A stretch of DNA of 61,374 nt, from positions 1-61,374 of the forward strand of contig JAZBOU010000125.1 of NCBI GenBank assembly GCA_036351275.1, in the 5' to 3' direction. The translations under genes and the position numbers were made by a program. Under the pieces are notes generated by a model that was not told the DNA's origin, ran no database searches, and saw only the letters and a program-made list of their open reading frames with translations. The first letter of the stretch is position 1, and the number at the start of each line of letters is the position of its first letter. Source of the DNA: Bacteroidales bacterium. GTDB lineage: Bacteria > Bacteroidota > Bacteroidia > Bacteroidales > B18-G4. Shown here piece by piece: positions 1 to 56,552 of the stretch.

Positions 1-49
1 AGTATCAAGTATCAAGTATCAAGTATCAAGTATCAAGTATCAAGTATGA
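1..49. repeat. Tandem heptanucleotide array (AGTATCA)x6 plus one degenerate unit (AGTATGA)
   Basis: Direct reading: perfect 7-nt period from position 1. The array may extend left of the window. Confidence 0.95.
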
Positions 50-59
50 TGTATTTTTT

Positions 60-67
60 TACCTTTG
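60..67 (+). promoter_or_regulatory. Bacteroidota -7 promoter box TAccTTTG
   Basis: Matches the TAnnTTTG consensus, 29 nt upstream of the ATG at 97. Confidence 0.45.
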
Positions 68-96
68 CCTTTCTCTAAATAATAATGATGTAAAAC

Positions 97-1299
97 ATGG
101 AAACATTGTCGGAACGTATTAGGATGCTCTCCGAGTCGGAAACCCTGGCAATGACCCGGAAAAGCAGGGAACTGAAAGCAAAGGGTTATGACGTGATCAA
201 TCTCAGTATCGGTGAACCGGATTTTAATACCCCGGAATTCATCAAGGATGCAGCCCATCTGGCCATCGACCAGAATAAGACCCATTATCCGCCAGTTCCG
301 GGTTATCCCGAACTCAGGGAGGCAGTGGTCAGAAAGCTTAAACGTGACAACGGGCTTGATTATACACCTGATCAGATCGTTATCTCAGGTGGTGCAAAAC
401 ATTCAATAGCTAATGCCATGCTGTGCCTTGTGAACAAGGGTGACGAGGTTATTGTGCCTGCACCGTACTGGGTTTCATACAAGGAGATCATCAAGCTGGC
501 AGAGGGGGTTCCTGTAGTGGTGGAGACCAGCATCGACAATGATTTCAAGATCACGCCGGAGCAGCTTGAATCCGCGATCACCCCCAGAAGCAAGGTGCTG
601 ATATACAGCAGCCCGTGCAATCCGACAGGATCCGTATACTCCAGGGAAGAACTGGAAGCGCTTGCCAGGGTCATTGAAAAACATGAAAACATTTATGTGC
701 TTTCTGACGAGATCTATGAATTGATACGCTTTGAAGGAAAGCACGAGAGCATTGCCCAATTTGAATCAATCCGCGACAGGGTGGTCATCATCAACGGGGT
801 GTCAAAGGGATTTGCCATGACCGGTTGGCGGGTAGGTTACCTGGCTGCCCCGCCTGAAATTGCCAAAGCCTGCGATAAACTCCAGGGACAGGTCACCAGT
901 GCGACCTGCTCCATATCGCAATATGCATCAATTGCTGCCATGGAATGTGATCCGGCTGTAAATAAAGATATACAGGAAATGGTGGAGACCTTCGACGAAC
1001 GTCGCCGGCTGGTATTCGGATTACTGGAGCAGATCCCCGGTTTGCGGAACAATATGCCGGAAGGGGCCTTTTATTTCTTCCCGAATGTAAAAGCTTACTT
1101 TGGCAAGAAATTCGGCGATAAAGAGATCAGCAACAGTACTGACCTGTGCATGTACCTGCTGAACCATGCACATGTAGCCCTGGTACCCGGTGACGCTTTC
1201 GGCAACCCTAACTGCATCAGGATCTCCTATGCCACTTCCAGGAAATTATTGATCACTGCCATAGCAAGGATTTCGGAAGCGCTGGGGGAACTGAAATAA
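97..1299 (+). CDS. PLP-dependent class I aminotransferase (aspartate aminotransferase-like)
   Basis: 400-aa ORF. It has LSIGEPDF, SSPCNPTG and the SKGFAMTGWRVGY block carrying the PLP lysine, typical of AspC-type enzymes. Confidence 0.9.
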   Translation: METLSERIRMLSESETLAMTRKSRELKAKGYDVINLSIGEPDFNTPEFIKDAAHLAIDQNKTHYPPVPGYPELREAVVRKLKRDNGLDYTPDQIVISGGAKHSIANAMLCLVNKGDEVIVPAPYWVSYKEIIKLAEGVPVVVETSIDNDFKITPEQLESAITPRSKVLIYSSPCNPTGSVYSREELEALARVIEKHENIYVLSDEIYELIRFEGKHESIAQFESIRDRVVIINGVSKGFAMTGWRVGYLAAPPEIAKACDKLQGQVTSATCSISQYASIAAMECDPAVNKDIQEMVETFDERRRLVFGLLEQIPGLRNNMPEGAFYFFPNVKAYFGKKFGDKEISNSTDLCMYLLNHAHVALVPGDAFGNPNCIRISYATSRKLLITAIARISEALGELK

Positions 1300-1316
1300 G
1301 TGCCGGGTGCCGGGTG
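1300..1316. repeat. Short heptamer repeat (GTGCCGG)x2.4
   Basis: Direct reading. It lies in the 28-nt gap between the aminotransferase stop and the next ATG. Confidence 0.8.
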
Positions 1317-1327
1317 AAGAATGGATT

Positions 1328-2335
1328 ATGACTATGATCGATTATAAAAAACTAATAGAGTCTTTCAAGGACAAACGGGTGATGATCGTGGGTGATGTGA
1401 TGGTCGACTCCTACCTCTGGGGGGTGGTTGACAGGATCTCTCCTGAAGCCCCTGTTCCTGTTGTAGATGTGAATCACAGGGAGGAACGTCTTGGCGGTGC
1501 TGCCAATGTGGCCCTGAATATACAGGCCCTGGGAGTTGAAGCAATACTCTGTTCTGTGGTGGGTAAGGAATTGAAAGGGGATGCTTTCCTGAGGATCATG
1601 GAGGAAGAAGGACTTGCCACTGACGGGATCTACCGCACAAATGACAGGATCACAACTACAAAGTTCAGGATCATCGGTAACAACAGCCAGCTGCTTCGTG
1701 TGGATGAAGAAAACACCCATGACCTGAGCCCGGATGACGAGAAAAAATTCCTTGACATATGTACAGGGCACATCGAGAGCAATAGCATCGATGTACTGAT
1801 CATCCAGGATTACAATAAGGGGATAATGACCCCCGGGGTGATCACTGCAATCATTGAAAAGGCAAACTCCATGAATGTGCCTGTTGTGGTCGATCCCAAG
1901 AAAAAGAACTTTGATCTCTACCGTAATGTAAGCCTCTTCAAGCCAAACCTTAAGGAACTCAAAGAAGGCCTGAAGATCGAATTCAATGAACCGGAGGAGG
2001 ATGTGTTAAACGATACGGTCAGCATTTTAAGGGAAAAGATCAACAATGATATTGCACTCATTACATTGTCGGAGCATGGCATTTATATTTCTTCCCATAA
2101 AGAGGGGAATACTGAAAGTCACCTGCTTCCGGCACACAGGAGGAATATCTCGGATGTTTCCGGTGCCGGTGATACCGTGGTCAGCGTGGCTTCCCTCTGC
2201 CTGGCTGCCGGGGCAAAGCTGAGAACAATAGCGGAGGTGTCGAACCTGGCAGGTGGAATCGTGTGCGAAAAGGTCGGGGTGGTGCCTATCGACCGGGAGC
2301 GCTTTATGGAAGAACTCGACAAGCTTGGGAGTTAA
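1328..2335 (+). CDS. PfkB-family sugar kinase, RfaE/HldE domain-I type (D-glycero-beta-D-manno-heptose-7-phosphate kinase-like)
   Basis: The N-terminal VMIVGDVMVDSYLWG..RISPEAPVPV and C-terminal DVSGAGDT motifs match HldE domain I. No adenylyltransferase domain II is present. The track start 1307 is a GTG inside the repeat, so I prefer the first ATG at 1328. Confidence 0.75.
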   Translation: MTMIDYKKLIESFKDKRVMIVGDVMVDSYLWGVVDRISPEAPVPVVDVNHREERLGGAANVALNIQALGVEAILCSVVGKELKGDAFLRIMEEEGLATDGIYRTNDRITTTKFRIIGNNSQLLRVDEENTHDLSPDDEKKFLDICTGHIESNSIDVLIIQDYNKGIMTPGVITAIIEKANSMNVPVVVDPKKKNFDLYRNVSLFKPNLKELKEGLKIEFNEPEEDVLNDTVSILREKINNDIALITLSEHGIYISSHKEGNTESHLLPAHRRNISDVSGAGDTVVSVASLCLAAGAKLRTIAEVSNLAGGIVCEKVGVVPIDRERFMEELDKLGS

Positions 2336-2347
2336 AGGATTAATCAA

Positions 2348-2355
2348 TATGTTTG
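2348..2355 (+). promoter_or_regulatory. -7 promoter box TAtgTTTG
   Basis: TAnnTTTG match in the intergenic region upstream of the 2426 gene. Confidence 0.4.
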
Positions 2356-8869: not shown

Positions 8870-8877
8870 CTACTTAA

Positions 8878-8908
8878 TTCTGTATTCTGTATTCTGAATA
8901 CTGAATTC
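8878..8908. repeat. Heptamer array (TTCTGTA)x2 then (TTCTGAA/TACTGAA)
   Basis: Direct reading of a 7-nt period in the gap before lpxB. Confidence 0.8.
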
Positions 8909-10155: not shown

Positions 10156-12273
10156 ATGTGGAGCCGCGTACCCTTACTAAGGTTGCTGTTACCCTTTGCT
10201 GCCGGGCTATTGTCCCCGGCCTGTATTTATTTGCAAGGGGGAATCATCCAGATTTGTATACTGGCATTTCCTGTGCTGGCCGGAGGACTCTTTTACCGCT
10301 ACCTCTATGGATACCGCAGTCGCTGGCTTCACGGCTTGTTCATCATACTGTTCATGTTTGCCTGTGGCCAGTATCTTGCATGGAAAGTAAATGCCCGGCA
10401 GGATCGACAACTGAGTGCCGTCAGTGAAAGCGAACAGATGTATTTAGTGCAGCTCGATGAAGCCTTCGAAATACGTGAGCGCTCCTTCAGGGCAAAAGCC
10501 GATGTGCTGGCATGCCTTGAAGGGGATTCATGTACCCGGGTCGATGCAGGTTTGATGCTGTACGCTGAACCTGATCCCTCACTTGCCGGTGTTCTCCCCG
10601 GAGGCCTGATGCTTATCCGGGCCGGGTTGCAGGTAGTTAAACCTCCGGCGAATCCCGATGAATTTGATTACAGGAAATACCTTGCCCGAAAGGGAATATT
10701 TCACAGTGTGTACCTGTCGACAGATGAATGGAAAATACTGGGTACCCCGCCACAAATGTCATTGTTCATGCATGCCGAACGGTTCAGGCTAAAGCTACTG
10801 GATAAATTGAAAGCGAACGGTATCCTGGGAAAGCATTTCGGTATCGCTTCGGCACTTTTGCTTGGCGAAGACAGCCACCTGGATGCCGGCACCAGGGATG
10901 TATACGCCAGGGCAGGGGCCATGCATATTCTGTGTGTTTCCGGTTTGCATGTTGGTGTGATCTTCCTGGTGCTGAACACATTGCTGGGATTTTTGAAAAG
11001 ATCTAGTTTGGGACGATGCCTTCTCCCTCCGGTCCTGATGGCCAGCATATGGTCATACGCGCTGCTTACGGGTATGGCCCCTCCCGTGAGCAGGGCCTCC
11101 TGTATGATCAGCTTTTTTATTATCGGTAATATGATGGGGCGGCATAAAAATGCGTACAATACGCTTGCAGCCTCGGCGATGCTTTTGCTCATGCTGGATC
11201 CACGGTTGCTATACGGTGCCGGCTTTCAGCTTTCGTATTCGGCGGTACTGGGGATCATTTCGCTTCAAAGGCCACTGGAAAACCTGTTCTGTTTTCGTTA
11301 CAAACTGATCGACAGGATCTGGTCCATCACTACAGTTTCCATTGCTGCCCAGGTCGGGACACTCCCGGTGGTACTGTATTATTTCCACCAGTTCCCGCTT
11401 TACGGACTGATCACGAACCTGATCGTGATACCATTGTCGTCCATTATCATCTATTCAGGCATACTGCTACTGATCCTTCCGGTGTCGATGGCATCAGCAT
11501 GGGTGGCAGAGGCATTCAAGATGCTCCTGCGTACCATGGATGCCGGGGTAAACCTGGTTGAGAGCATACCGTTTGGCATGGCAGAAGAGATCATGATCGA
11601 CCTACCGGCAGCCATACTGCTGGCCCTTTTGATATGCTGCATCTCGGCCTTTCTGATCAGTAAAAAAAACATTTTTCTGATCATGGGGGTATTGTGCCTG
11701 CTGCTGCTATCCCTGAACAGCTTGCAAACAAAATACTTAAAACTTACCCGGCGGTCATTTGTAGTGTATTCCGTCAGGGGTCACTCTGCATACGACTGCA
11801 TCAATGGCACCACGCATCATTTTTATGCAGATTCCCTGCTCCTGCACTCGCCGGATAAAGTTGATTACAGCATCAGGCCACACTGGCTGGCCATAGGACT
11901 AAAAAGAAGCTTTATCGATACACTCAATGCTCAAATGGATCATGCAGCATGGACAATGCCGAATGGACAATGCCAGCATATTATATTCTGGACAGGTGCC
12001 TTTCCACATTGCTCACCCCCTGTTAAAAAGCCGGCTCCGGCATATCTGATCCTGCGGGGGAAATGCCCTTTTAACATTGAACAGCTGTTTGACTGGTTCG
12101 ATCCCGGCCTGGTGATCATCGATTCCTCCGTCCCGCCATGGGTAAAAGCCCCCGAAGGAGATAAGAGGTTTTGGGATGTAAGGGAAAAAGGAGCCTATCT
12201 GAGTTCCGGGTGCCGACCTGCCTGCCCGCCACAGGCGGGTAAACCGGCAGGCAGGGTGCCGAGTGATGAGTGA
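10156..12273 (+). CDS. comEC: ComEC/Rec2-family competence membrane protein
   Basis: 705 aa and polytopic, with the central competence-domain block RAGAMHILCVSGLHVG..FQLSY. The last ~25 codons read through a GC hairpin and a heptamer repeat, so the conserved protein probably ends earlier in functional terms. Confidence 0.8.
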   Translation: MWSRVPLLRLLLPFAAGLLSPACIYLQGGIIQICILAFPVLAGGLFYRYLYGYRSRWLHGLFIILFMFACGQYLAWKVNARQDRQLSAVSESEQMYLVQLDEAFEIRERSFRAKADVLACLEGDSCTRVDAGLMLYAEPDPSLAGVLPGGLMLIRAGLQVVKPPANPDEFDYRKYLARKGIFHSVYLSTDEWKILGTPPQMSLFMHAERFRLKLLDKLKANGILGKHFGIASALLLGEDSHLDAGTRDVYARAGAMHILCVSGLHVGVIFLVLNTLLGFLKRSSLGRCLLPPVLMASIWSYALLTGMAPPVSRASCMISFFIIGNMMGRHKNAYNTLAASAMLLLMLDPRLLYGAGFQLSYSAVLGIISLQRPLENLFCFRYKLIDRIWSITTVSIAAQVGTLPVVLYYFHQFPLYGLITNLIVIPLSSIIIYSGILLLILPVSMASAWVAEAFKMLLRTMDAGVNLVESIPFGMAEEIMIDLPAAILLALLICCISAFLISKKNIFLIMGVLCLLLLSLNSLQTKYLKLTRRSFVVYSVRGHSAYDCINGTTHHFYADSLLLHSPDKVDYSIRPHWLAIGLKRSFIDTLNAQMDHAAWTMPNGQCQHIIFWTGAFPHCSPPVKKPAPAYLILRGKCPFNIEQLFDWFDPGLVIIDSSVPPWVKAPEGDKRFWDVREKGAYLSSGCRPACPPQAGKPAGRVPSDE
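12217..12255. terminator. GC-rich compound hairpin (CCTGCCTGCC..GGCAGGCAGG, with a nested CGCC-acag-GCGG)
   Basis: 10-bp perfect inverted repeat with a nested 4-bp stem. It lies at the 3' end of comEC in a convergent junction. There is no clean T-run. Confidence 0.4.
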
Positions 12274-12280
12274 TGAGTGT
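12261..12280. repeat. Heptamer array (GAGTGAT)x2 plus a degenerate unit
   Basis: Direct reading. It contains the comEC stop codon. Confidence 0.8.
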
Positions 12281-12308
12281 CGGACAATTAATGGAACCTG
12301 GATTATGA

Positions 12309-12343
12309 AGTCTCAAGTCTCAAGTTTCGAGTTTCGAGTCTCA
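12309..12343. repeat. Heptamer array AGTCTCA x2, AGTTTCG x2, AGTCTCA x1
   Basis: Direct reading of five 7-nt units in the convergent gap. Confidence 0.9.
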
Positions 12344-12354
12344 ATTATCAAACA

Positions 12355-16441: not shown

Positions 16442-16470
16442 TCTGATTATTTCACTTCCAAAATAGAAAA

Positions 16471-16556: not shown

Positions 16557-16625
16557 TTTGAAATCTGAAATGTGTTTTTCGATGCTCAATTTTCGATGCC
16601 CGATGTTCGATGTTCGATGTTTCTA
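16557..16625. repeat. Heptamer array (TGAAATC/TGAAATG, then TTTCGAT/GCTCAAT/GCCCGAT/GTTCGAT units)
   Basis: Direct reading of a 7-nt period over about 9 units, with point variants. Confidence 0.85.
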
Positions 16626-32659: not shown

Positions 32660-33487
32660 ATGAAAAAAATCATAGAGTCAAAAGATTACCTTCAGCAAAA
32701 AGGTGTGAGTTCACCGGAGATAGGCATAATCCTGGGTACGGGACTTGGGAAACTGGTTGACCGGATAAACATTGAGCTAAAAATTCCCTACGAGGATATT
32801 CCGTATTTCCCGGTATCGACCGTGGAATTTCATAAAGGTGAGCTTATTTACGGCAGCCTTTCAGGAAAGAAAGTGCTTGCCATGCACGGGCGTTTCCACT
32901 ATTACGAAGGATACAGCCTTCAGGAAGTGGTATTTCCCGTAAGGGTGATGAAGATGCTGGGGATCAAAGCACTTCTGGTTTCCAATGCCTGCGGTACCAT
33001 TAACATGAATATACCCAAGGGCAGCCTCATGATGTTAAACGATCATATTAACATGCTTGGCGATAACCCGCTGATAGGCCCCAACTATGATGAACTCGGT
33101 CCGCGCTTCCCGGATATGAGCGAGCCTTACAGCCGGGAGATCAATGAACTCTTGAGGCGGGCAGCGGAAGAGAGAGGCATTATGCTTCATGAAGGTGTTT
33201 ATGCTGCCTTTCCGGGACCCATGCTGGAAACCAGGGCGGAATACCGCTTCCTTCAACGCATCGGGGCTGATGTGGTGGGGATGTCGACCGTGCCTGAAGC
33301 AATTGCGGCACGTCATATGGGACTTCCATGTTCTGCAATTTCTGTGATCACCGACGAATGCGACCCGGATAACCTTGCCGTTGCGGATATCAAAGATATA
33401 CTGGCAACCGCCGCCCTTGCGGAAGAAGACCTCATCGTTTTGTTTGAGGAAGTTGTTGCCAAGCTGACAGTAGGCAGAAGGAAGTAG
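32660..33487 (+). CDS. Purine nucleoside phosphorylase (PunA/PNP-I, inosine-guanosine type)
   Basis: It has GIILGTGLG, HGRFHYYEG, SNACG and GADVVGMSTVPE blocks of the trimeric PNP/MTAP family. The last codons lie in a heptamer repeat. Confidence 0.88.
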   Translation: MKKIIESKDYLQQKGVSSPEIGIILGTGLGKLVDRINIELKIPYEDIPYFPVSTVEFHKGELIYGSLSGKKVLAMHGRFHYYEGYSLQEVVFPVRVMKMLGIKALLVSNACGTINMNIPKGSLMMLNDHINMLGDNPLIGPNYDELGPRFPDMSEPYSREINELLRRAAEERGIMLHEGVYAAFPGPMLETRAEYRFLQRIGADVVGMSTVPEAIAARHMGLPCSAISVITDECDPDNLAVADIKDILATAALAEEDLIVLFEEVVAKLTVGRRK

Positions 33488-33499
33488 GCAGTAGGCAGT
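33470..33499. repeat. Heptamer array GTAGGCA / GAAGGAA / GTAGGCA x2
   Basis: Direct reading. It spans the PNP stop codon. Confidence 0.8.
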
Positions 33500-34564: not shown

Positions 34565-34637
34565 AGAGCCTTACTTGACATTAACCGACTATTTTAACAC
34601 ATGTTTTACACAAATTATTGTTCATTACAGGGATAGA

Positions 34638-34792
34638 GGGTTCAGGGCTCAGGGTTCAGGGTGCAGGGAGGGTATATGGTTTGTGGTTTGTGGTATGTGG
34701 TATGCGGCTTGAGGTATTCAGTAATTCTGATTTCTGATTTCAATTTCTGATTTCTGATTTCATCTCGTCCCCCGTCCCCCGCCCCCCGTCCC
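34638..34792. repeat. Composite array of four different heptamer repeat families (GGGTTCA-like x5, TGGTTTG/TGGTATG x6, TTCTGAT-like x5, CCCGTCC-like x4)
   Basis: Direct reading of about 155 bp of back-to-back 7-nt periodic blocks in the divergent intergenic region. Confidence 0.9.
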
Positions 34793-34811: not shown

Positions 34812-34815
34812 TTGC

Positions 34816-40466: not shown

Positions 40467-40538
40467 TATTTTAAGAAGCCCTTTCACCATAAATTAATAA
40501 TTTAGCAATCCGAATGAACTAGATTCGTTAATTGAACT

Positions 40539-40826: not shown

Positions 40827-40830
40827 AATA

Positions 40831-40889
40831 GTGTTGAGTGTTGAGGGTTGGGTGTTGAGTTGCCTCACGCCCCAGGCCTCAAGCCCCAA
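40831..40889. repeat. Two adjacent heptamer arrays (GTGTTGA-like x5, then GCCTCAC/GCCCCAG/GCCTCAA/GCCCCAA)
   Basis: Direct reading. The track ORF start 40831 lies inside the repeat. Confidence 0.85.
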
Positions 40890-40899
40890 ACCCGATAAT

Positions 40900-43404: not shown

Positions 43405-43455
43405 TCAGCGATCAATAGTCCCTGCTTACTCGTTTCCAGTTAATTAAGATAGAAA

Positions 43456-43504
43456 CCAGTAACGAGTAACGAGCAACGAGCAACCAGAAACCAGAAACCA
43501 GTAA
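43456..43504. repeat. Heptamer array CCAGTAA / CGAGTAA / CGAGCAA x2 / CCAGAAA x2 / CCAGTAA
   Basis: Direct reading of seven 7-nt units. An inverted partial copy (TTACTCGTT) at 43426..43434 can pair with AACGAGTAA. Confidence 0.9.
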
Positions 43505-43513
43505 CATTATCCC

Positions 43514-46548: not shown

Positions 46549-46594
46549 AGGCGAGTCGGTTTATAATATCAACTATAAATATAATGCAATATTG

Positions 46595-47578: not shown

Positions 47579-47595
47579 AACCAGTTTGTTTCGGG

Positions 47596-47603
47596 CAAAG
47601 ATA
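47596..47603 (-). promoter_or_regulatory. -7 promoter box TAtcTTTG (minus strand)
   Basis: CAAAgaTA on the plus strand. It lies inside the maximal ORF but upstream of the preferred TTG start. Confidence 0.4.
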
Positions 47604-47683
47604 AGGAGAAATGAATAAGTTGGCATCAAACAATAATGCTACAGCTGGATACCATCCCCATTATTTTCCGATATTTGCCTGTA

Positions 47684-48433: not shown

Positions 48434-48437
48434 CACT

Positions 48438-48445
48438 TATCTTTG
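48438..48445 (+). promoter_or_regulatory. -7 promoter box TAtcTTTG, 6 nt before the ATG
   Basis: TAnnTTTG match between the stop at 48433 and the ATG at 48452. Confidence 0.35.
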
Positions 48446-48451
48446 CGCTTT

Positions 48452-50001: not shown

Positions 50002-50002
50002 A

Positions 50003-51811
50003 TCACAAATCGTTCAATCGTTCAATGACATTCAGTGCCCGCTCACTGGCTTTCCCATCTATAGCAAAGGCATATCGTGCAATGAAGCTTTCATACGCAG
50101 TTTGATCAATGCCCGTTTTTCCTGAGAGCAGGCCTGTGAGGTGATCTTTCAGTTCATCCTTGTTGCAGGCCCGCAGGGCAACACCTTCCCTGTGATACCC
50201 CTGTATATCCTGCCTGAGATGATCGAGGATAACAAGCGGTTTTTTGAAATATATCGTCTCAGCACCAACAGTTGAGAAACAGGTTACCAGCACATCGCAT
50301 ACCGAGATCAGAAGGTACAGGTCAGGGTCGAGGGTAATGCGGATACGCTCAAGACCGGCCTCTCCTGCAATATTCTTATAATAAGCAGTGTCGTATCGCT
50401 CGTTGGGATGCAGTTTGACCAGCAGAAATGCATCAGGCATCTCTTTCACTGCCTGCATAATATCCAGAGCAGCCCTTTTTCGTAAGCCTGGGTCACGCTG
50501 AGGCTGTGAGGCGAATACGATCAGTTTTTCATGACTTTTAAGCTCCGGTACAACGTACTGTTTTTCAAAAGGTCTTGCAAGAAGCACCGGGATGATATCG
50601 GTCCGGATCTGTCCGCTCACTGTCAATTGTTCAGGCCCATAATGGCCGTTCTTTACCAGGAGCTCTTTCCAGAATTCCCCCCACACAAGCGTATGATCCG
50701 GAAAAGCATTCCTTGATTTGTCGGACGGAGTATAAACATATGCAGGATGCAGATCATGAATGCTGCCATGCTGTATGCCGATGGTATGGATCCCATTTAC
50801 GCGGGCAGCATCCAGTATGCACCTGATTGCTGGGCTGTTCTCATCAACACTGGAAATGGTCTTGTATTTATGCTTGCTGAAGAACTTTTTATACGCCAGA
50901 TATTTAATAAGATAGAAACGGGTAGCGCCCTGAAATGATCGGTAGATGTCGGACAGTGTTTTTTCCTCACCGGTACAGGCATTTCCGATCAGCTGTAATT
51001 CACTATTTAGTCTGTTTCCGAGTTCTTTTCTTCTTTTTCTGAGCGTTGCTGATGCGAAATATTTGAGGAGCACTGGTTCACCGAAGTACCTGCCCTTCCG
51101 TTTGCCTTTACCGAACAGATGATCCTTGCTCAGCTTTATTTTTGCGCCATCAGTTAGTTTTGGTTGTACAGCTTCATCAAGGATCAGGAAGTCATTGCCT
51201 GCTTGTTCGATCATATACCCGAGAACATAATTTCCCTTTTTGATCTCAAGCGTATCCATATCCAGAAAGGTCTGCCGTTTCGTCACATCAAGTATGATAT
51301 GCTCAGGCTTGCTGAACTTCCGGCCTGAAAACAGGTTCAGGATACTACGGCTTAACAGGATTGTAAAGTAATTGAAAAGGGAAAAGCAGTTCCTTCTGCT
51401 CTTGTTTTTTCCTGCCGGACCATATATGGAAACATTTTCGGGGAATTCCATCCCGCCCAGCAACCTGTCATCGGTATAATAATATATGTTTTCGTTGCTT
51501 TTTTTAGCGTATTCCCTTAAAGCATGCGCTTCATACCTCAGGTTACGTAATCGGAAATAGGCCCTGAATTTGTGGTAATACCACAGGCTGCTGCTATCAA
51601 ATTTCAAGCGGTCAGCAACAGCAGTGCCGTCAATTAATTTATCACCAAAAGCCAGGACTTGCTTCATCGTCTCACGATTGATCTTTTTCTTGTCTTCCCG
51701 GGTGATGGGGGGACCGGGCCTGTCCCAGAGCCATGCGCCCTTTTCGTACAACGCATCAACCTCTTTCCTTTCATGAGGTTCCAAATCCCGTTTTTCGAAA
51801 ATGACACTCAT
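50003..51811 (-). CDS. Large putative glycosyltransferase (KpsS/KpsC- or TagF-like C-terminal half)
   Basis: 602 aa. The C-terminal half carries LVKLHPNE and DVLVTCFSTVGAETIYFKKPLVILD, which resemble capsule-synthesis or teichoic-type GT-B motifs. Its start overlaps the flippase stop (ATGA). Confidence 0.4.
   Translation of the reverse strand: MSVIFEKRDLEPHERKEVDALYEKGAWLWDRPGPPITREDKKKINRETMKQVLAFGDKLIDGTAVADRLKFDSSSLWYYHKFRAYFRLRNLRYEAHALREYAKKSNENIYYYTDDRLLGGMEFPENVSIYGPAGKNKSRRNCFSLFNYFTILLSRSILNLFSGRKFSKPEHIILDVTKRQTFLDMDTLEIKKGNYVLGYMIEQAGNDFLILDEAVQPKLTDGAKIKLSKDHLFGKGKRKGRYFGEPVLLKYFASATLRKRRKELGNRLNSELQLIGNACTGEEKTLSDIYRSFQGATRFYLIKYLAYKKFFSKHKYKTISSVDENSPAIRCILDAARVNGIHTIGIQHGSIHDLHPAYVYTPSDKSRNAFPDHTLVWGEFWKELLVKNGHYGPEQLTVSGQIRTDIIPVLLARPFEKQYVVPELKSHEKLIVFASQPQRDPGLRKRAALDIMQAVKEMPDAFLLVKLHPNERYDTAYYKNIAGEAGLERIRITLDPDLYLLISVCDVLVTCFSTVGAETIYFKKPLVILDHLRQDIQGYHREGVALRACNKDELKDHLTGLLSGKTGIDQTAYESFIARYAFAIDGKASERALNVIERLNDL
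50008..50027. repeat. Octamer repeat (AATCGTTC)x2.5
   Basis: Direct reading. It lies within the last codons of the minus-strand 602-aa gene. Confidence 0.75.
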
Positions 51812-53256
51812 CGCAGATACTTTATGAAGATTTGACGGATCTCTGTTTTATACAATATTGCGAGGCTCATGATGATAAGCAGGACAACCAGGCTGGAGGT
51901 AAGGTAGGGGTTCAGCCCGGCCTCGACCTTCAGGTATTCGAGCAAGCCGGTCAGCAGAACAATGGCGAAGGGATAGAAAAGCATCTTCTTATTGTTCCAG
52001 CGGATCCCGGTCAGCTTTCGGTTGATGAAATAAAATGCGATGGATTGTATGCTCAGGGAAATATACATCGCAATGATCACGCCGTAGAAGCTTAAAACCG
52101 GCACCAGCAGGTAGTTCAAGCCCAGGTTCGCCACCAGGGCGAAGCTGTTTACATAAAGGAAATATATGGTCTTCTTCCTGAAATAAACACCGTATGAGAA
52201 TACCAGGAATTGGGTTCGTACGATGAACTTAATGAAAATGATCGTGATCAACCCGTAAGCCAGCCTGACATCGGTAGTGTAAAAAAGCGTGAGGTATAGC
52301 ATGGCGGGAATGATGGCCATGGCTATGAGTACCTGCGTTTGCGCCATCATCAGGTTCGACAGTTTTTTGATGTCACCTTCATGCTCCTCCATGCCTGCAT
52401 CCATAAAGCGGTAGATCTCCGGTTGGGTCGCACTCTGTATACCGATCAATATCTTTTCAAAACCCAATGCAAGGCCCACAGCTACGCCATAAATGCCCAG
52501 GTCAACCGGTTTGCTTTCCAGGAAGAAACGTTCCGCATAGTTGATACCCCACAGGATTATGGCAAACTGGAACAGGGGGAACGCAAACTGGTTAAGTTCC
52601 TTCATCATGTTCATGTTGAACCTGAACCCGCACGAATACCAGGTATAAACCATTACGGTGATGCTGGTTATGCTGCTTCCGATGGCCCCGCCCCAGAGAA
52701 AACCGATAAAAGACATGTCGTAATAGAATACCCCGATCACCTGGAAGCCGGCACGGAGTATGCCAAGGCCAACATTCAGGAGTATGAACCGCCTGACTTT
52801 TTTCTCATTCCTGTAAAGCGTAGCTGCGGTCATGGCAATAGCCCTGTTGATCCCGATGATCATGGCCAGGAAGCCATAGCTTTCAAAGTCCTGTAAAGCG
52901 GGCTGGCTGAATACCTGACCAATGTAGTCCTTGAAAAGCCAGCCGACACCCAGCAGTATCAGGCCCCTGAACAGGATAGAATTCATTACGGTGGAAACCA
53001 TTTTGTGATAACCGCTCTGACGGTCCTTATGCTCATAGTAGAAGCGGGCGATGGCATTCCCCATCGAAAAAAGTGCGACGGTAAATACAAGGCTTGTAAC
53101 AAGCTCGCTCACGGCCAGTTGTGAGAAATCTACCGGTCCGAGCCTGTTCGGCCCTTCGATGATGGGCTGGATGATAAGCTGCAGTCCCGGGGGAAGGGCT
53201 GCAACCACGATATAGATCGCCGAAAGCTTAAAATACTCCTTAAGGTTGAGCTTCAT
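51808..53256 (-). CDS. Wzx-like polysaccharide/oligosaccharide flippase (MOP superfamily)
   Basis: About 480 aa with about 14 TM helices in a glycan-cluster context. I prefer the ATG at 53256 (MKLNLKEYFKLSAIYIV). Confidence 0.6.
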   Translation of the reverse strand: MKLNLKEYFKLSAIYIVVAALPPGLQLIIQPIIEGPNRLGPVDFSQLAVSELVTSLVFTVALFSMGNAIARFYYEHKDRQSGYHKMVSTVMNSILFRGLILLGVGWLFKDYIGQVFSQPALQDFESYGFLAMIIGINRAIAMTAATLYRNEKKVRRFILLNVGLGILRAGFQVIGVFYYDMSFIGFLWGGAIGSSITSITVMVYTWYSCGFRFNMNMMKELNQFAFPLFQFAIILWGINYAERFFLESKPVDLGIYGVAVGLALGFEKILIGIQSATQPEIYRFMDAGMEEHEGDIKKLSNLMMAQTQVLIAMAIIPAMLYLTLFYTTDVRLAYGLITIIFIKFIVRTQFLVFSYGVYFRKKTIYFLYVNSFALVANLGLNYLLVPVLSFYGVIIAMYISLSIQSIAFYFINRKLTGIRWNNKKMLFYPFAIVLLTGLLEYLKVEAGLNPYLTSSLVVLLIIMSLAILYKTEIRQIFIKYLR

Positions 53257-53274
53257 GCATAAGGATTGATAAAA

Positions 53275-53282
53275 CAAAAATA
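53275..53282 (-). promoter_or_regulatory. -7 promoter box TAttTTTG (minus strand)
   Basis: CAAAaaTA on the plus strand, 18 nt upstream of the ATG at 53256. Confidence 0.45.
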
Positions 53283-53315
53283 GGGAAACTTAATTAGATG
53301 CAGCCTTAATAAATC

Positions 53316-54269
53316 TTAATCGGTATTACTTCCGCTTTTATGTGCATCGTAGATACTTGCGTTGAGCTCAAACCCGATCAGCAGGGCAATGGCATTGATG
53401 TTTATGTAAAGCATCAGGATGATGATGGTACCGATGGAACCATACAACTCGTTGTAACGGGCAAAATTATCAATGTAGAGGTTAAAAAGTGCAATAAAAA
53501 CCAGCGCGAGCAGGGTGGCCAGTGTGCTCCCCGGCGAGAAGAACCTGAATACGCGCTTCCCGGCAGGAGCGAGATAGAAAAGGACCGAAAGGCTGAGAAA
53601 CATCAGCAATCCCAGTATGACCCATTTCGCAATACTGATCATTATTAAGGTGAAGTCGTTGGTTATGATGCTGTTATCCGAAATATAGTTCAGCAGCACA
53701 GGGGTCAGGATCAGCAAGGCCGCTGCAATGATGATAATGGTGATGAGGATCAGTTGAATGCCAAGTGAGACCAGGTGCATCTTAAACCACGAACGGGTTT
53801 CCATAGTATGAGCTGAACGGTTAAATGCTTTCATGATGCCGATAACGCCGCTGTTGGAAAAATAAAATGCCATGAAGAAACCAAGCGATAGCCAGCCGCC
53901 ACTCTGTTTACTCACGATCTCTGTAATGGTCTTTTCCAGGAAGCCGTATACTTGCTCAGGCATCACGTTGTACAGTGCACTCAATATTGAATCCTGCAAG
54001 CCATCAACCGGGATATATGGAATTATTGTAAAAAAGAACAATATCATAGGAAAGATCGCCAGTGTGAAGGTAAAGGATAGCGAGTTGGCCCTGGCCAGCA
54101 GTGAACTTTGCCTGATGCCCCTGAAGAAAAACTGTACCACATCATAAATTGGCATTCCCCTGAACCCGGGAAGGGTTACCCTTCGGCCCCAACGAAGCAA
54201 TACCCTGTAAAAACGGTACTTTTCAAGGAATTTAAAAGGATTGATATGTCTTTTTTTCCAGTCAGACAA
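53316..54269 (-). CDS. YihY/BrkB-family inner membrane protein
   Basis: It has the ARANSLSFTFTLAIFPMILF block and six TM helices typical of YihY. Confidence 0.8.
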   Translation of the reverse strand: MSDWKKRHINPFKFLEKYRFYRVLLRWGRRVTLPGFRGMPIYDVVQFFFRGIRQSSLLARANSLSFTFTLAIFPMILFFFTIIPYIPVDGLQDSILSALYNVMPEQVYGFLEKTITEIVSKQSGGWLSLGFFMAFYFSNSGVIGIMKAFNRSAHTMETRSWFKMHLVSLGIQLILITIIIIAAALLILTPVLLNYISDNSIITNDFTLIMISIAKWVILGLLMFLSLSVLFYLAPAGKRVFRFFSPGSTLATLLALVFIALFNLYIDNFARYNELYGSIGTIIILMLYININAIALLIGFELNASIYDAHKSGSNTD

Positions 54270-54270
54270 A

Positions 54271-55104
54271 TTATATGGCTTTTAAGCTCAGGTCAAGGCT
54301 CTTCACCTGGTGAGTCAGTGCACCGACAGAGATGAAGTCGACACCTGTTTCGGCCACCGGCCGCAATGTTTCTTCAGTGATACCGCCTGAAGCTTCGGTT
54401 TCGTATTTGCCGGCGATCATCCCAACAGCAGTTTTCATATCGGCCATATTGAAATTGTCGAGCATGATCCTGTCGATACCTCCATGTTCCAGTACCTGCC
54501 GGACTTCGTCAAGGTTCCTTACCTCGATCTCGATCTTAAGGTCCTTGCCTTTTTCCTGTAAATATTTTCTGCAGGCAGTGATCGCATTGGCGATCCCCCC
54601 GGCAAAGTCAACATGATTGTCTTTTATCATGATCATGTCGTACAGTCCCATGCGGTGGTTCAACCCGCCTCCTATCCGTACGGCTTCTTTCTCGAAATAA
54701 CGGAAATTAGGCGTTGTTTTTCGTGTATCCAGGAGTCGTGTGTGCAGGCCGTTGAGAAGTCCGGTGAGGTAGTTGGTATAGGTTGCGATCCCGCTCATGC
54801 GTTGCATGAAATTCAGTGCCAGCCGCTCTGCCGACAGCAGTGAAACGGCCTTTCCGCTGACCCTGAATACAATGTCACCTGGTGCTATTTTTTCACCGTC
54901 TTTGATAAATATTTCGATTTGAGTATCCGGGTCTACAGCTTTGAAAACCTGAACCGCCACATCAACTCCTGCCAGGATGCCATCCTGCTTAACCAGTAAT
55001 TCTGCAATACCCATATTGCCATGCGGGATGGTAGAAAGGGATGTATGGTCACCGTCGCCCAGGTCCTCGACCAGGGCATTCTTGATAAACTCTTTGATAT
55101 TCAT
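54271..55104 (-). CDS. nadC: Nicotinate-nucleotide diphosphorylase (carboxylating) / quinolinate phosphoribosyltransferase
   Basis: It has LLDTRKTTP, HRMGLYDMIMIKDNH, LDNF and EASGGIT blocks. Confidence 0.92.
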   Translation of the reverse strand: MNIKEFIKNALVEDLGDGDHTSLSTIPHGNMGIAELLVKQDGILAGVDVAVQVFKAVDPDTQIEIFIKDGEKIAPGDIVFRVSGKAVSLLSAERLALNFMQRMSGIATYTNYLTGLLNGLHTRLLDTRKTTPNFRYFEKEAVRIGGGLNHRMGLYDMIMIKDNHVDFAGGIANAITACRKYLQEKGKDLKIEIEVRNLDEVRQVLEHGGIDRIMLDNFNMADMKTAVGMIAGKYETEASGGITEETLRPVAETGVDFISVGALTHQVKSLDLSLKAI

Positions 55105-55120
55105 ATCAGGATAAAACTAG

Positions 55121-55516
55121 CTATTCTTCCTCGAACTGTAACTGGACTATGAGATACTTGCCTTCTTTTTCTTTAAGAAGGATATATGTTTTAAAGGTCT
55201 TTACACTTTTGTAGGTGCCAATGATGTACATGGTGGCTTCCCTGGAAGAACCCTGGTGGTTCTCGCTGTATGATTTAGGCGGATTTTCCTTGAAAAAACT
55301 TTTCATGACCTGGGTGGCCTGCGATTTGCTCATGGACTCATCGGTGCCCGGTATGCTGATATCCAGGCTCGAATTGAAAAGCTTACCCAGTGATGTGGCA
55401 TCGCCGGCCTTAAGGGCTTTATTAACCTGATCTGTAACTTCCTGGGCGCTGAGCGGGTGTGACACACCGGCAAATATAAATGCCTGTATCATAAGAATGT
55501 ATAGCAATGACCTCAT
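55121..55516 (-). CDS. Small secreted protein (DUF4783-like)
   Basis: I prefer the start at MRSLLYILMIQAFIFAGVSHPLSAQE (signal peptide). It lies upstream of nadC in the same orientation. Confidence 0.55.
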   Translation of the reverse strand: MRSLLYILMIQAFIFAGVSHPLSAQEVTDQVNKALKAGDATSLGKLFNSSLDISIPGTDESMSKSQATQVMKSFFKENPPKSYSENHQGSSREATMYIIGTYKSVKTFKTYILLKEKEGKYLIVQLQFEEE

Positions 55517-55567
55517 AAACACTAATTTAATGAATAAATAGGCACAAAGAACGTTCCAAACCTTATT

Positions 55568-55575
55568 CAAAGTTA
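55568..55575 (-). promoter_or_regulatory. -7 promoter box TAacTTTG (minus strand)
   Basis: CAAAgtTA on the plus strand, 51 nt upstream of the ATG at 55516. Confidence 0.45.
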
Positions 55576-55628
55576 AGGAATAAAACGATAATCCATATCT
55601 TTACTAATTAAATTAGGCATTAATACCA

Positions 55629-55699
55629 GGTGCTGGGTGCTTGGTGCTGGGGACCGGGAATAATTAATACCCGGCCCCTGGCCCCCAGCCCCTGGTCCC
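55629..55699. repeat. Two heptamer arrays of roughly complementary sequence (GGTGCTG-like x4 and CCTGGCC-like x4) flanking an AT loop
   Basis: Direct reading. Hand pairing gives an imperfect stem of about 30 positions around the aataattaata loop. Confidence 0.85.
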
Positions 55700-55713
55700 A
55701 CAACAACATCATC

Positions 55714-56406
55714 ATGAACATTATCATCACAGGCGCCAGTAAAGGCATCGGACGCGAAGTTGCCAGGCAGATCGCATCTGCAGGCGAACACAGGGTGATC
55801 GCCATTGCCCGGACAGAAGATAAACTGAACAGCCTTCTGGAGGAGCTTCCCGAAGGAGATCGCCTCATCCCGATGGTATTTGATCTCCGGCATGGAGACT
55901 ACGACCAGCTGGCAATCAACATCAGGAAACATTTTTCAGAGATCCATGGACTGATCAACAATGCCGGTGCGCTGGTGAATAAGAAAGTCAGTCAGATGAA
56001 TTCTTCAGATATCGACCTGATGATGGATGTGAACCTGAAGGCTCCATTCCTGATGATACAATCCCTTATTCCGCTTTTCGAACCGGATGCCCACATTGTC
56101 AATATTGGCAGCATGGGCGGGTTCCAGGGAAGTTCCAAATTTCCCGGATTGTCGCTCTACAGTGCAAGCAAAGGTGCTCTTGCGATACTGTCGGAATGTC
56201 TTGCAGAGGAATTGAAAGATTACAGGATATCCGTGAACTGCCTGGCCCTGGGTGCTGCGCAAACCCAAATGCTCTCTGAAGCTTTTCCCGGATACAAGGC
56301 ACCGCTCACCGCCAGCGAAATGGCTTCCTTTATTGCTGATTTTACATTGAACGGCCACCGCTATTTCAATGGAAAGATCCTGCCCATCAGTTTGAGCACA
56401 CCCTGA
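55714..56406 (+). CDS. Short-chain dehydrogenase/reductase (SDR)
   Basis: It has TGASKGIG cofactor, NNAG and YSASK catalytic motifs. I prefer the ATG at 55714, because the track start 55630 lies in the repeat. Confidence 0.88.
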   Translation: MNIIITGASKGIGREVARQIASAGEHRVIAIARTEDKLNSLLEELPEGDRLIPMVFDLRHGDYDQLAINIRKHFSEIHGLINNAGALVNKKVSQMNSSDIDLMMDVNLKAPFLMIQSLIPLFEPDAHIVNIGSMGGFQGSSKFPGLSLYSASKGALAILSECLAEELKDYRISVNCLALGAAQTQMLSEAFPGYKAPLTASEMASFIADFTLNGHRYFNGKILPISLSTP

Positions 56407-56412
56407 AAATGT

Positions 56413-56472
56413 GAATGCGAGAATGCGGGAATACGTGAATACGGGGTCCCGTGTTCTGGTACTCTGGTACTC
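56413..56472. repeat. Octamer arrays (GAATGCGA/GAATGCGG/GAATACGT/GAATACGG, then TTCTGGTA/CTCTGGTA)
   Basis: Direct reading of an 8-nt period. It also contains the inverted repeat GGAATACGTGA (56428..56438) / TCACGTATTCC (56471..56481). Confidence 0.85.
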
Positions 56473-56552
56473 ACGTATTCCGAATATGTGACCGATATGG
56501 TTTCTGTGTGAGAAAAACATTTTCGGCACTAAATTGTTATAGCTATAATTGA

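Follow-up and report, generated by a model that had tools for sequence, protein, structure and literature searches.

The window (the whole 61,374-nt stretch of DNA analyzed here) derives from an uncultured Bacteroidales and contains short tandem arrays beside genes such as those encoding LpxB, ComEC, GidB, and YfhO (Table 1). The array density was high, with about 12 array-bearing spacers in 61 kb and about 20 arrays when counted singly, and arrays accounted for approximately one-sixth of the intergenic DNA of the window (our own sum from Tandem Repeats Finder and the gene model).

Table 1. Arrays and associated features in the window (x, copy number; strand given where assigned).
Position	Unit or composition	Strand	Location and remarks
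1..49 (Tandem Repeats Finder 1-47)	AGTATCA x6.7		Truncated by window start; upstream of aminotransferase gene (ATG 97)
60-67	TACCTTTG		Bacteroidetes-type -7 box between array 1..49 and aminotransferase gene
1300..1316	GTGCCGG x2.4		Short spacer, aminotransferase stop (1299) to PfkB-family kinase gene
8871..8908	TTCTGTA repeats, then inverted copy GAATACTGAATTC		Small hairpin; 3' end 8 nt ahead of LpxB ATG (8917)
12261..12280	GAGTGAT x2.7		Across ComEC stop codon (12271-12273)
12308..12344	AGTCTCA/AGTTTCG x5.3		Between convergent genes; 10 nt past stop of minus-strand acetyl-CoA carboxylase carboxyltransferase gene
16557..16625	GAAATCT x2, then TTCGATG/CTCGATG x6.3 (16578-16621)		Flanked by canonical terminator (16465-16497) and 3' side of tRNA-Asp(-)
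33468..33499	GTAGGCA x4.6		Across purine nucleoside phosphorylase (PNP) stop (33485-33487)
34637-34792	Four adjacent arrays (Tandem Repeats Finder)		Glucosaminidase <-> GidB spacer
34630..34672	GGGTTCA/GGGCTCA/GGGTGCA x4.6	+	Left outer array of the same spacer; canonical G-quadruplex motif on + strand
34671..34717	GGTATGT/GGTTTGT, about 6 copies		Glucosaminidase <-> GidB spacer
34725..34762	TTCTGAT x5.4		Built as 20-nt unit duplicated 1.9 times
34766..34792	CGTCCCC x3.9	-	G-quadruplex motif on - strand; 12 nt ahead of GidB -7 box TAGCTTTG (34804)
40830..40860	GTGTTGA/GGGTTGG x4.4	+	G/T-rich left arm, 4 nt past DUF4834 stop
40862..40889	GCCTCAC/GCCCCAG/GCCTCAA/GCCCCAA	+	C/A-rich right arm, DUF4834 -> YfhO spacer; 3' end 10 nt ahead of YfhO ATG (40900)
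43422..43441	CTGCTTACTCGTTTCCAGTT	+	Degenerate left arm, YfhO -> GT4 spacer
43454..43505	AACCAGT/AACGAGT/AACGAGC x7.4	+	A/C-rich right arm, YfhO -> GT4 spacer; 3' end 8 nt ahead of GT4 ATG (43514)
50008..50027	Octamer AATCGTTC x2.4		Between convergent HAD hydrolase(+) and glycerophosphotransferase-like(-) genes
55625..55657	GGTGCTG x3.3 plus GGGGACCGGG	+	Hairpin left arm, DUF4783(-) <-> SDR(+) spacer
55670..55699	CCCGGCCCC TGGCCCC CAGCCCC TGGTCCC	-	Right arm, G-quadruplex motif on - strand; 3' end 14 nt ahead of SDR ATG (55714)
56411..56445	Octamer GAATGCGA/GAATGCGG/GAATACGT/GAATACGG x4.1	+	5 nt past SDR stop
56455..56482	TCTGGTAC x2.2 (56455-56472) plus TCACGTATTCC	+	Closes hairpin with 56411-56445

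All 14 loci listed in a preliminary description of this DNA were recovered by Tandem Repeats Finder and are real, including the locus upstream of LpxB (8876-8908, 4.7 copies). The boundaries given by this program for other loci were 12261-12279, 40830-40888 (two arrays), 50008-50026, 55629-55699 (two arrays), and 56411-56443. Copy number was only 2.2-2.7 in four of the 14 arrays, and the 16557-16577 portion of the locus beside tRNA-Asp was a weak repeat. When exact arrays (at least two copies plus three bases) were counted in the window and compared with 30 dinucleotide shuffles, 13 were observed at period 7 (0.0 in the shuffles) and one at period 8 (0.03), and periods 4-6 and 9-15 yielded exact arrays at chance level only. 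In a 1.3 Mb sample, comprising the window and 82 related loci, 47 arrays had a period of 7 and 10 a period of 8, and no other period exceeded seven arrays (at least three copies, score of at least 40). Furthermore, the same or orthologous arrays were present in independent assemblies that differed in sample, study, and assembler (three samples from JGI and two assemblies from ENA).

According to the gene model and Pfam, gene interiors held none of the arrays of the window, as had been claimed. The accompanying claim that every array lies in a gap or straddles a start or stop codon was borne out for gaps and for stop codons, two of which (ComEC and PNP) were straddled, whereas true start codons never were. 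The open reading frames from GTG 40831 and GTG 55630 were over-extended: all close homologues of YfhO had 834 aa and nearly all of SDR had 230 aa, which places the true starts at 40900 and 55714, respectively. The open reading frame at 16586-16849(-) is not a protein gene but tRNA-Asp. In the 1.3 Mb sample, non-coding DNA made up 12% of the sequence, yet held 38 of the 47 period-7 arrays. However, boundary location alone is no sign of function, because a 7- or 8-nt step breaks the reading frame. The placement of the arrays was varied (ahead of -7 promoter boxes, within leaders, in co-directional and convergent gaps, and beside a tRNA gene), which argues against one common RNA-level function.

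The units were locus-specific and drifted by single substitutions, as previously described, but they were not fully independent of each other: several were variants of GGGTGNN/GRGTGNN, and C-rich partners of such units formed several of the right-hand arrays. Five loci consisted of two partly complementary arrays that folded as hairpins, with z-scores from -3 to -6. These included the hairpin upstream of LpxB (-4.8 on the plus strand and -3.9 on the minus strand), that with the right arm 40862..40889 (-3.0 and -3.9), that of the DUF4783 <-> SDR spacer (-3.3), and that downstream of SDR (-4.0 and -5.2). At four loci of the window, among them 40862..40889, the cognate arm outpaired the 17 non-cognate right arms (rank 1 of 18), and one compensatory pair (C:G to U:A) preserved a stem pair at 55670..55699. 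Selection for pairing could explain the cognate arms and the compensatory change as well as template switching does, a point against the explanation preferred below. Folding was about equal on both strands, and a sense-strand G-U signature was therefore absent. In the z-score test of window loci, several arrays had no fold at all, for example 1..49 (z = 0.2), and the fold of 12308..12344 was not significant. No T-run followed the paired-array hairpins, including 56455..56482, so these are not canonical terminators, and no Rfam family matched the arrays. The window has three G-quadruplex motifs, and all of them lay within arrays. The right arms ended 8-14 nt ahead of start codons, and their sense strand was poor in G. 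In a broad metagenome sample, from which the statistics of this strand rule exclusively derive, the sense strand of arrays was G-poor ahead of starts but G-rich past stops (each class with p about 0.004), which shows the arrays to be subject to some selection or transcription-linked process. This strand rule also stands against the preferred explanation. The preliminary interpretation was incomplete, since it included neither hairpin pairing and G-quadruplex motifs nor the extreme variability at the strain level.

Comparison with L210, a relative of approximately 96% (YfhO 96% aa identity; four-fold sites 87% identical to the window), revealed that all five array-bearing spacers differed in length, by 8-42 nt; five of the seven array-free spacers were gap-free, with an identity of 94-98%. 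An exact one-unit length change between close relatives was found in two clear cases, namely the octamer AATCGTTC (two units in the window and three in L210) and GAATNCGN (4 vs. 3). The octamer array at 56411..56445 had three units in 93% relatives. The GTGTTGA arm (4 vs. 3 units) and the GGGTKCA array (4.6 vs. 5 units, with five in L210) also varied, together with the remainder of their spacers. In L210, the GTAGGCA array was a single-copy ACAGTAGGC and the place of the GGTATGT/GGTTTGT array was occupied by non-repeated sequence. The TTCTGAT array was a single-copy CTCTGATTTCAAT in L082 and comprised four contiguous units in L210. Other arrays were missing altogether: the YfhO -> GT4 arrays from L082 and L004, the block upstream of GidB from L002, the hairpin upstream of SDR from L208 and L209, and the arrays downstream of SDR from L206 and L207. 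On the other hand, the GTGTTGR x4 arm past the DUF4834 stop persisted in five genomes, and in L002, whose synonymous sites are saturated relative to the window (four-fold sites 36% identical), it matched the window at 31/31 nt. Such identity of the arm is not expected under pure neutral turnover. Four genomes also kept the unit families CCAGNAA/CTGG in their YfhO -> GT4 spacer.

The STRR1-3 units of heterocystous cyanobacteria are CCCCAGT, TTGGTCA, and CAACAGT. These are likewise non-coding tandem heptanucleotides, but they comprise three defined units that occur genome-wide in another phylum. No exact tandem of the three STRR units, TAACTGA, GGGAATC, GGGGAYT, or ATCTTTC was found in the window; because of this and of the Bacteroidales host, the arrays are not STRRs, and the analogy drawn earlier holds only as a loose likeness between boundary heptamers. 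The REP/BIME elements of enterobacteria form a dispersed family with a common consensus and associated RAYT transposases. Like the present loci, they form hairpins between the cistrons and in the 3' regions of housekeeping operons, whereas the loci described here have no common consensus and their arms are made of tandem repeats.

The arrays do not constitute a new system but locally exemplify a kind of bacterial repeat that is already known. As summarized in two later papers, long simple-sequence repeats (LSSRs) have units of 5-11 nt beyond chance length, with many units per genome and polymerase slippage as the proposed origin; period 7 is by far the commonest, heptanucleotides are the top class in most repeat-rich prokaryotic genomes surveyed, and the repeats are intergenic because the unit is no multiple of three (Mrazek, Guo & Shah 2007; PMC4679880, PMC4692102). 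The present case differs in its host, an uncultured Bacteroidales outside the coverage of the survey, in its high density, and in its frequent inverted-copy pairing. The GGGAATC repeats of Xanthomonas and GGGGAYT repeats of Nostoc are also intergenic heptamers with G-quadruplex motifs, some in inverted pairs with stem-loop potential, whose positions are kept in related species while length and sequence vary, and whose G-rich strand is the non-coding one ahead of starts and the coding one past stops (PMC4692102). However, each has one dominant unit at about a hundred loci, whereas the window loci have units of their own, and only three of about 20 arrays contain G3N4 motifs. Three tandem heptanucleotides are described in Calothrix PCC 7601 (PMC4692102). 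The statement that no description was known for Bacteroidota was too strong, since TAACTGA direct repeats, found in Beggiatoaceae and cyanobacteria, were also reported in five Bacteroidetes, one of which, Paludibacter propionicigenes, belongs to the Bacteroidales, and other heptamer repeats share their spacers in Gramella and Aequorivita (PMC4679880). The TAACTGA repeats keep one orientation, mostly precede start codons by no more than a few nucleotides, and have a single shared unit, for which horizontal spread was proposed (PMC4679880); this unit is unrepeated in the window. In Haemophilus influenzae hmw1A/hmw2A, an (ATCTTTC)n repeat is likewise one arm of a hairpin, here a long one in the 5' leader that is closed by a complementary arm, and slippage alters the repeat number; RNase III processing and graded expression were demonstrated for this adhesin contingency locus of a pathogen (PMC12721329), whereas the present loci adjoin housekeeping genes.

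The loci are best explained as heptanucleotide, and in a few cases octanucleotide, LSSRs that arise and turn over in place, a reading to which we assign a probability of roughly 0.6. The length variation and the single-copy or absent arrays in relatives point to in situ slipped-strand expansion, a mechanism that we infer from between-genome comparisons. The driver would be slipped-strand mispairing during replication, favoring 7-nt steps as in many bacteria. Template switching may occasionally give an array an inverted copy, and the two complementary arms could then form a hairpin or cruciform before drifting. The confinement of arrays to gene boundaries would reflect the purging from genes of 7- or 8-nt steps, which break frames; a 42-nt heptamer array (6 copies) within a variable loop of the GT4 gene of L001 preserves the frame and thus fits such a filter. 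An orientation filter probably keeps arrays with a G-poor sense strand before start codons and G-rich ones after stop codons.

A less likely alternative is that selection maintains the arrays, and the paired ones in particular, as cis-acting elements. They would act as RNA or DNA hairpins or as G-quadruplexes, situated in leaders, between cistrons, and at 3' ends, and would control how stable the mRNA of neighboring genes is or how it is processed or translated. Repeat number would then be a heritable, adjustable setting, as in the hmw1A leader hairpin; in a variant of this explanation, the arrays are protein-binding sites, as proposed for TAACTGA repeats. The conserved GTGTTGR arm, the retained CCAGNAA/CTGG families, the hairpin z-scores, the first rank of cognate arms, the compensatory pair, the position and G-poor sense strand of the right arms, and the strand rule, which agrees with PMC4692102, all favor selection, as do the functional precedent in PMC12721329 and the regulatory effect reported for heptamer repeats in Nostoc. 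However, arrays were present or absent among relatives that are 79-90% identical at the flanking housekeeping gene and were rewritten between relatives of approximately 96%. The arrays without any fold, the heterogeneous positions relative to promoters and genes, the equal folding on sense and antisense strands, the lack of an Rfam match, and the absence of terminator T-runs also weigh against selected elements.

It is improbable that the array blocks are insertions of non-autonomous MITE- or REP-like hairpin elements carrying tandem repeats. Relative to L002, the block upstream of GidB does resemble an insertion, with the direct repeat TTATTGTT on its flanks and the inverted ends TACAGGGA/TCCCTGTA; L208 and L082 lack hairpin blocks in otherwise conserved spacers, a near-identical GTGTTGA arm follows an unrelated gene in L083, and the two right-arm types of the DUF4834 -> YfhO spacer are at odds with the species tree. 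Nevertheless, the window loci shared no sequence or terminal motif, candidate end motifs were chance-like in frequency within genes of related loci, and no transposase or RAYT-type gene was found beside any array among the genes scanned; moreover, whole repeat units vary and relatives carry single-copy precursors. Assembly artefact or chance low-complexity matching, which the low copy number of four arrays and the truncation of array 1-49 by the window edge might suggest, is refuted for practical purposes by the shuffle result and the independent assemblies.

As LSSRs turning over in place, the arrays constitute neither a family of dispersed sequences nor a mobile element, and they are no dedicated regulatory system either. 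They lengthen 5' leaders, gaps between cistrons, and 3' ends by 30-190 nt of sequence prone to form hairpins or G-quadruplexes, and a putative side effect of this added sequence is probably an altered expression of adjacent housekeeping genes.

Tandem Repeats Finder recovered arrays with the units of the preliminary description at every one of its loci. Exact arrays, defined as at least two copies plus three bases, were counted for periods of 4-15 nt and compared with 30 dinucleotide-preserving shuffles of the window. This yielded 13 arrays of period 7 (0.0 expected) and one of period 8 (0.03 expected), and periods 4-6 and 9-15 stayed at the chance level of the shuffles. There is thus a genuine excess, confined to period 7 but for a slight tail at period 8; four of the arrays first described are short (2.2-2.7 copies), yet form part of it. 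The same arrays were found again in independent assemblies (three JGI samples and two ENA runs) and so are not assembly artefacts. Chance is excluded by the shuffles and artefact by this recurrence. The observation itself holds, on solid statistics, whereas its first interpretation was partly correct.

The gene map of the window was built from a greedy ORF model and Pfam. The genes are housekeeping genes, encoding an aminotransferase, a PfkB kinase, SurE, LpxB, ComEC, an acetyl-CoA carboxylase carboxyltransferase, purine nucleoside phosphorylase (PNP), a glucosaminidase, GidB/RsmG, an MFS transporter, DUF4834, a YfhO-like protein, a GT4 glycosyltransferase, a HAD hydrolase, DUF4783, and an SDR. 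The arrays make up about one sixth of the intergenic DNA by our own sum. The ORF model, Pfam, and homologue lengths bear out the claim that no gene interior in the window holds an array. Arrays had also been said to straddle start and stop codons; two do span stop codons, at the ends of ComEC (12261-12280) and PNP (33468-33499), where they code for the last few residues, but no true start codon is straddled. Gain or loss of units there would therefore give ComEC or PNP a different C-terminal tail. The PNP tails are unlike one another in the window, the related Bacteroidales loci L001 and L082, and L210, a relative at about 96% identity. The ComEC coding region also contains a period-14 repeat (ATGCAGCATGGACA, 2.6 copies, 79% matches) at 11942-11979. 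Three mechanical ORFs that cover arrays were rejected. Those from GTG 40831 and GTG 55630 were over-extended, as close homologues are all 834 aa and nearly all 230 aa, respectively, which places the starts at ATG 40900 and ATG 55714. The third (16586-16849, minus strand), which overlaps the array at 16557-16625, was spurious and is really a tRNA-Asp gene. The right-hand arrays end 8-14 nt upstream of the ATG of LpxB, YfhO, GT4, and SDR. For the aminotransferase, GidB, and RseC, a Bacteroidetes-type -7 box (TAnnTTTG) stands between array and gene, so that these arrays are upstream of the promoter, while other arrays must be part of leaders or intercistronic RNA. This heterogeneous placement relative to promoters argues against a single RNA-level role.

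Orthologous spacers were located by tblastn and their sequences then inspected directly. The resulting strain-level series, with flanking genes at about 96, 93, 90, 85, 82, and 79% protein identity, covers the arrays in the second half of the window, beyond those at 1-16.6 kb. L210, a 22-kb contig, shares 96% identity with the window in YfhO and 87% at four-fold degenerate sites. Seven array-free spacers compared between the two were 90-100% identical (gap-free in 5/7), whereas all five array-bearing spacers were unequal in length, by 8-42 nt. This comparison directly demonstrates that the arrays are indel hotspots beside stable neighbouring spacers, and the copy-number comparison proposed in the preliminary description revealed variation in both unit counts and spacer lengths. 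In two clear cases the change was exactly one unit: the AATCGTTC octamer has two copies in the window and three in L210, and the GAATNCGN octamer has four copies in the window and three in L203-L205 (SDR identity of 93%). The GTGTTGA arm (four copies in the window, three in L210 and the related locus L081) and the GGGTKCA array (4.6 copies against five in L210) also differed, in spacers that were otherwise rearranged. Single-copy precursors were found for two arrays: GTAGGCA (4.6 copies) corresponds to a single ACAGTAGGC in L210, and TTCTGAT (five copies) to a single CTCTGATTTCAAT in L082. The GGTATGT array of the window was without a counterpart in L210. Relatives at a somewhat greater distance lack whole blocks: the YfhO-GT4 spacer is 109 nt in the window and 18 nt in L082, and the spacer upstream of GidB is minimal in L002, a relative with saturated synonymous sites. 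Furthermore, the SDR upstream hairpin is missing from the relatives L208 and L209, and the SDR downstream arrays from L206 and L207. Taken together, the unit-count changes, single-copy counterparts, and block losses seen in these spacers appear to be the signature of in-situ slipped-strand expansion and contraction. The MFS transporter gene also differs in its called length, at 571 aa in L210 (3775-5490) and 460 aa in the window (35540-36922), a difference of about 333 nt.

The nearest genomes are uncultured Bacteroidales MAGs, with a best amino acid identity of 85% (M20 peptidase gene); these shade into MAGs labelled Lentimicrobiaceae or Prolixibacteraceae at 60-67%. The window also encodes T9SS-tail, DUF4834, and DUF4783 genes. 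A wider census of the window and 82 related loci (1.3 Mb; arrays of at least three copies, TRF score of at least 40) found 47 arrays of period 7, 10 of period 8, and at most seven of any other period. Thirty-eight of the 47 period-7 arrays were in non-coding DNA, which accounts for 12% of the sequence under a crude ORF model, and several of the remainder were errors of that model. The unit was particular to each locus. Density was uneven, with 11 arrays in the window, six in L001, five each in L060 and L075, and none in many loci. One array, AGTTCAG in six copies at L001 17244-17287, lies within a GT4 glycosyltransferase gene; it preserves the frame because it is 42 nt long, and encodes a variable loop (ESSEFRVQNSEFKVQE) that is unrelated and two residues shorter in the window, L002, and L210.

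At five window loci (8871-8908, 40830-40889, 43422-43505, 55625-55699, and 56411-56482), two partly complementary arrays form the left and right arms of a hairpin. On at least one strand, the minimum free energy of these loci was 2.7-5.2 SD below that of dinucleotide shuffles. The pair at L001 16457-16537 (GTTACTG.../...CCAGTAA) reached z = -6.3, orthologous or analogous pairs in relatives were stronger still, and L076 contained a clear inverted pair, AAAGAGG/TTCCTCT, at 9776-9864. In a panel test of each left arm against 18 right arms, the cognate one was the top partner at four window loci and also at L001_16462 and L076. In the same test, the adjacent arrays 12261/12309, 34638/34766, and 34671/34725 paired no better than non-cognate ones and are therefore simple direct arrays. 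These results are evidence that the arrays commonly form complementary pairs. Comparison of the window with a 93% relative showed a switch from C:G to U:A in one stem pair of the SDR upstream hairpin. Sense and antisense folding, compared for an RNA-level G-U signature, showed no consistent asymmetry; because both strands fold about equally well, there is no mark of RNA-specific structure. Intrinsic (Rho-independent) terminators were also considered and rejected: a scan of 40000-57500 found no terminator-like site in any array locus, and no T-run was seen in the sequences downstream of the array hairpins. A canonical intrinsic terminator (GGCTGTCCCGAACGGGCAGCC then T6), of the normal type in this genome, is located outside an array at 16465-16497, downstream of a gene whose product carries a T9SS C-terminal sorting domain. 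A known structured RNA family was likewise rejected, as an Rfam scan of the whole window, judged at the gathering score, matched tRNA-Asp only.

Predicted G-quadruplex (G4) motif arrays and the tRNA gene of the window
Feature	Position	Strand	Basis
G4 motif array (predicted)	34630-34672	+	at least four G3+ tracts, 7-nt period
G4 motif array (predicted)	34769-34792	-	at least four G3+ tracts, 7-nt period
G4 motif array (predicted)	55670-55699	-	at least four G3+ tracts, 7-nt period
tRNA-Asp (GTC) gene	16735-16812	-	Rfam match

Only three canonical G4 motifs occur on either strand of the 61-kb window, all of them in arrays (Table); the other window arrays lack four or more G3+ tracts at a 7-nt period. 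Arrays at most 60 nt from a gene end tend to follow a strand rule, in which the sense strand has more C than G before starts and more G than C after stops. Among the metagenome matches listed, in a sample picked by one G-rich unit, the rule fitted 39/56 arrays before starts and 59/89 after stops (p about 0.004 each). The direction was the same, without significance, when the window was taken with just the 82 Bacteroidales loci. In the divergent spacers of the window, a C-rich arm adjoins the start of both genes because the arms are ordered G-left/C-right.

The spacer between DUF4834 and YfhO carries a GTGTTGR left arm of three to four copies in 5/5 genomes whose YfhO is at least 81% identical. 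The left arm of the window (40830-40860) and that of L002 (7391-7421) are identical over 31 nt, the variant third unit included, although the flanking genes agree at just 36% of their four-fold degenerate sites. Judged by this divergence, the arm appears to have been kept well past neutral expectation, which would fit poorly with simple neutral turnover. The right arm is of a CCTCAA/CCCCAG type in the window, L001, and L002, and of an ACATACC type in L081/L210 and L082, a distribution that disagrees with the species tree. Constraint, recent exchange, or a favoured unit could account for the 31-nt identity and the right-arm types. A scan of metagenome contigs used a left-arm pattern too degenerate for the matches listed to be a measure of relative unit abundance. 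Among those listed, contigs with GGTGTTG-type arrays range from 29 to 70% G+C, many such arrays are paired with CAACACC arrays, and many (CCAACAT)n runs abut ATG on the sense strand, often in high-G+C contigs. Other adjacent heptamers (GGTGATG, GGTGCTG, GGCCTTG, and GGTGTAA) are common in the same listed contigs, and one listed contig, L083, has a nearly identical arm behind an unrelated gene. GGTGTTG-type heptamers thus recur widely, and function, mutational preference, or exchange may be responsible. Two contigs, L093 and L160, bear (TTTTAGGG)n-like octamer runs beside the matched array, and may be eukaryotic (algal telomere-like) rather than bacterial.

Intergenic heptamer repeats have been on record since 1990, and the STRR units CCCCAGT, TTGGTCA, and CAACAGT are found in tandem at many loci of (heterocystous) cyanobacteria. 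The likeness to STRR that was first proposed does not amount to membership: no exact two-copy tandem of the three units occurs in the window, and the host belongs to Bacteroidales, not Cyanobacteria. None of the published units STRR1-3, TAACTGA, GGGAATC, GGGGAYT, and ATCTTTC forms an exact tandem in the window, so that the arrays fall outside the STRR, TAACTGA, and GGGAATC groups; TAACTGA is present as four single copies over both strands. On the other hand, the arrays show all tested features of the general heptanucleotide LSSR class, namely head-to-tail units of 1-11 nt exceeding chance length (13 vs. 0.0), restriction of non-multiple-of-three units to non-coding DNA (throughout the window, and 38/47 in 1.3 Mb), and whole-unit copy changes between related genomes (octamers, 2 vs. 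3 and 4 vs. 3). According to the account of Mrazek (2007) given in PMC4679880 and PMC4692102, heptanucleotides ranked first in abundance among long simple repeats in most repeat-rich prokaryotic genomes of that survey. The GGGAATC (Xanthomonas) and GGGGAYT (Nostoc) repeats are intergenic, form G-quadruplexes, occur as inverted pairs with stem-loop potential, keep their positions between species while length and sequence vary, and obey the same start/stop strand rule (PMC4692102). Three window arrays share their G3+ tracts but not their units. Such repeats had been thought undescribed in Bacteroidota; however, TAACTGA repeats are known from five Bacteroidetes, including Paludibacter, within a few nt of start codons, and Gramella and Aequorivita spacers with them hold other heptamer repeats too (PMC4679880). 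A further census noted that prokaryotic phyla are enriched in 6-9 bp units and that Bacteroidota are dense in repeats (PMC12699852). What is new here is the lineage, the density, the frequent hairpin pairs with locus-specific units, one arm apparently conserved past neutral expectation, and the strain-level series, from a phylum in which such repeats are barely described.

We consider it probable (about 60%) that the arrays are slippage-driven simple-sequence repeats formed in situ, with template-switch inversions and selective filters. Slipped-strand mispairing would expand and contract repeats in place, and template switching would now and then create inverted copies. Selection would then filter arrays by reading frame within genes and by strand composition beside starts and stops. 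The main rival, in which the paired arrays are selected cis elements of adjustable length, is possible if rather unlikely. The conserved arm, the best pairing of cognate arms, the compensatory stem change, and the strand rule are consistent with it, but among close relatives of these housekeeping genes the arrays are present or absent, or rewritten. Effects of heptamer repeats are described elsewhere: those at recF and recO are reported to have regulatory effects (Nostoc preprint), and in the hmw1A leader of H. influenzae a heptamer repeat is one arm of a hairpin cut by RNase III (PMC12721329). In phase-variable contingency loci, expression of a surface or virulence gene is switched by the length of a repeat in its ORF or promoter/leader. 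The window arrays are situated in leaders or promoter-proximal DNA, their length varies from strain to strain, and their neighbours are housekeeping genes.

A bolder proposal, which we regard as quite doubtful, is that selection maintains the paired heptamer arrays as a class of hairpins with adjustable length, through which environmental Bacteroidales would balance expression between adjacent housekeeping genes, the 7-nt step coming from a specific process or binding factor and not from generic slippage. A G/U-rich arm would follow one stop and a C/A-rich arm precede the next start. The class would perhaps extend to many phyla, because the same strand rule and GGTGTTG/CAACACC arms occur in contigs of 29-70% G+C among the matches listed. 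A mobile-element origin of the array blocks is very improbable: the four-array block within 34560-34815 looks inserted relative to the minimal spacer of L002 (957-1031), with a flanking direct repeat (TTATTGTT) and inverted ends (TACAGGGA/TCCCTGTA), but this arrangement is not met again at other loci, and the frequency of the candidate end motifs, which fall mostly within genes, is chance-like. REP/MITE-like dispersed elements were also rejected, as the window loci share no motif.

As it stands, the main import of these arrays is a caution for annotation, since spacers that contain them yield over-extended ORFs and variable C-terminal tails. If one or more of the hairpins tune expression, control by repeat number would reach the housekeeping operons of free-living bacteria, beyond the contingency genes of pathogens.
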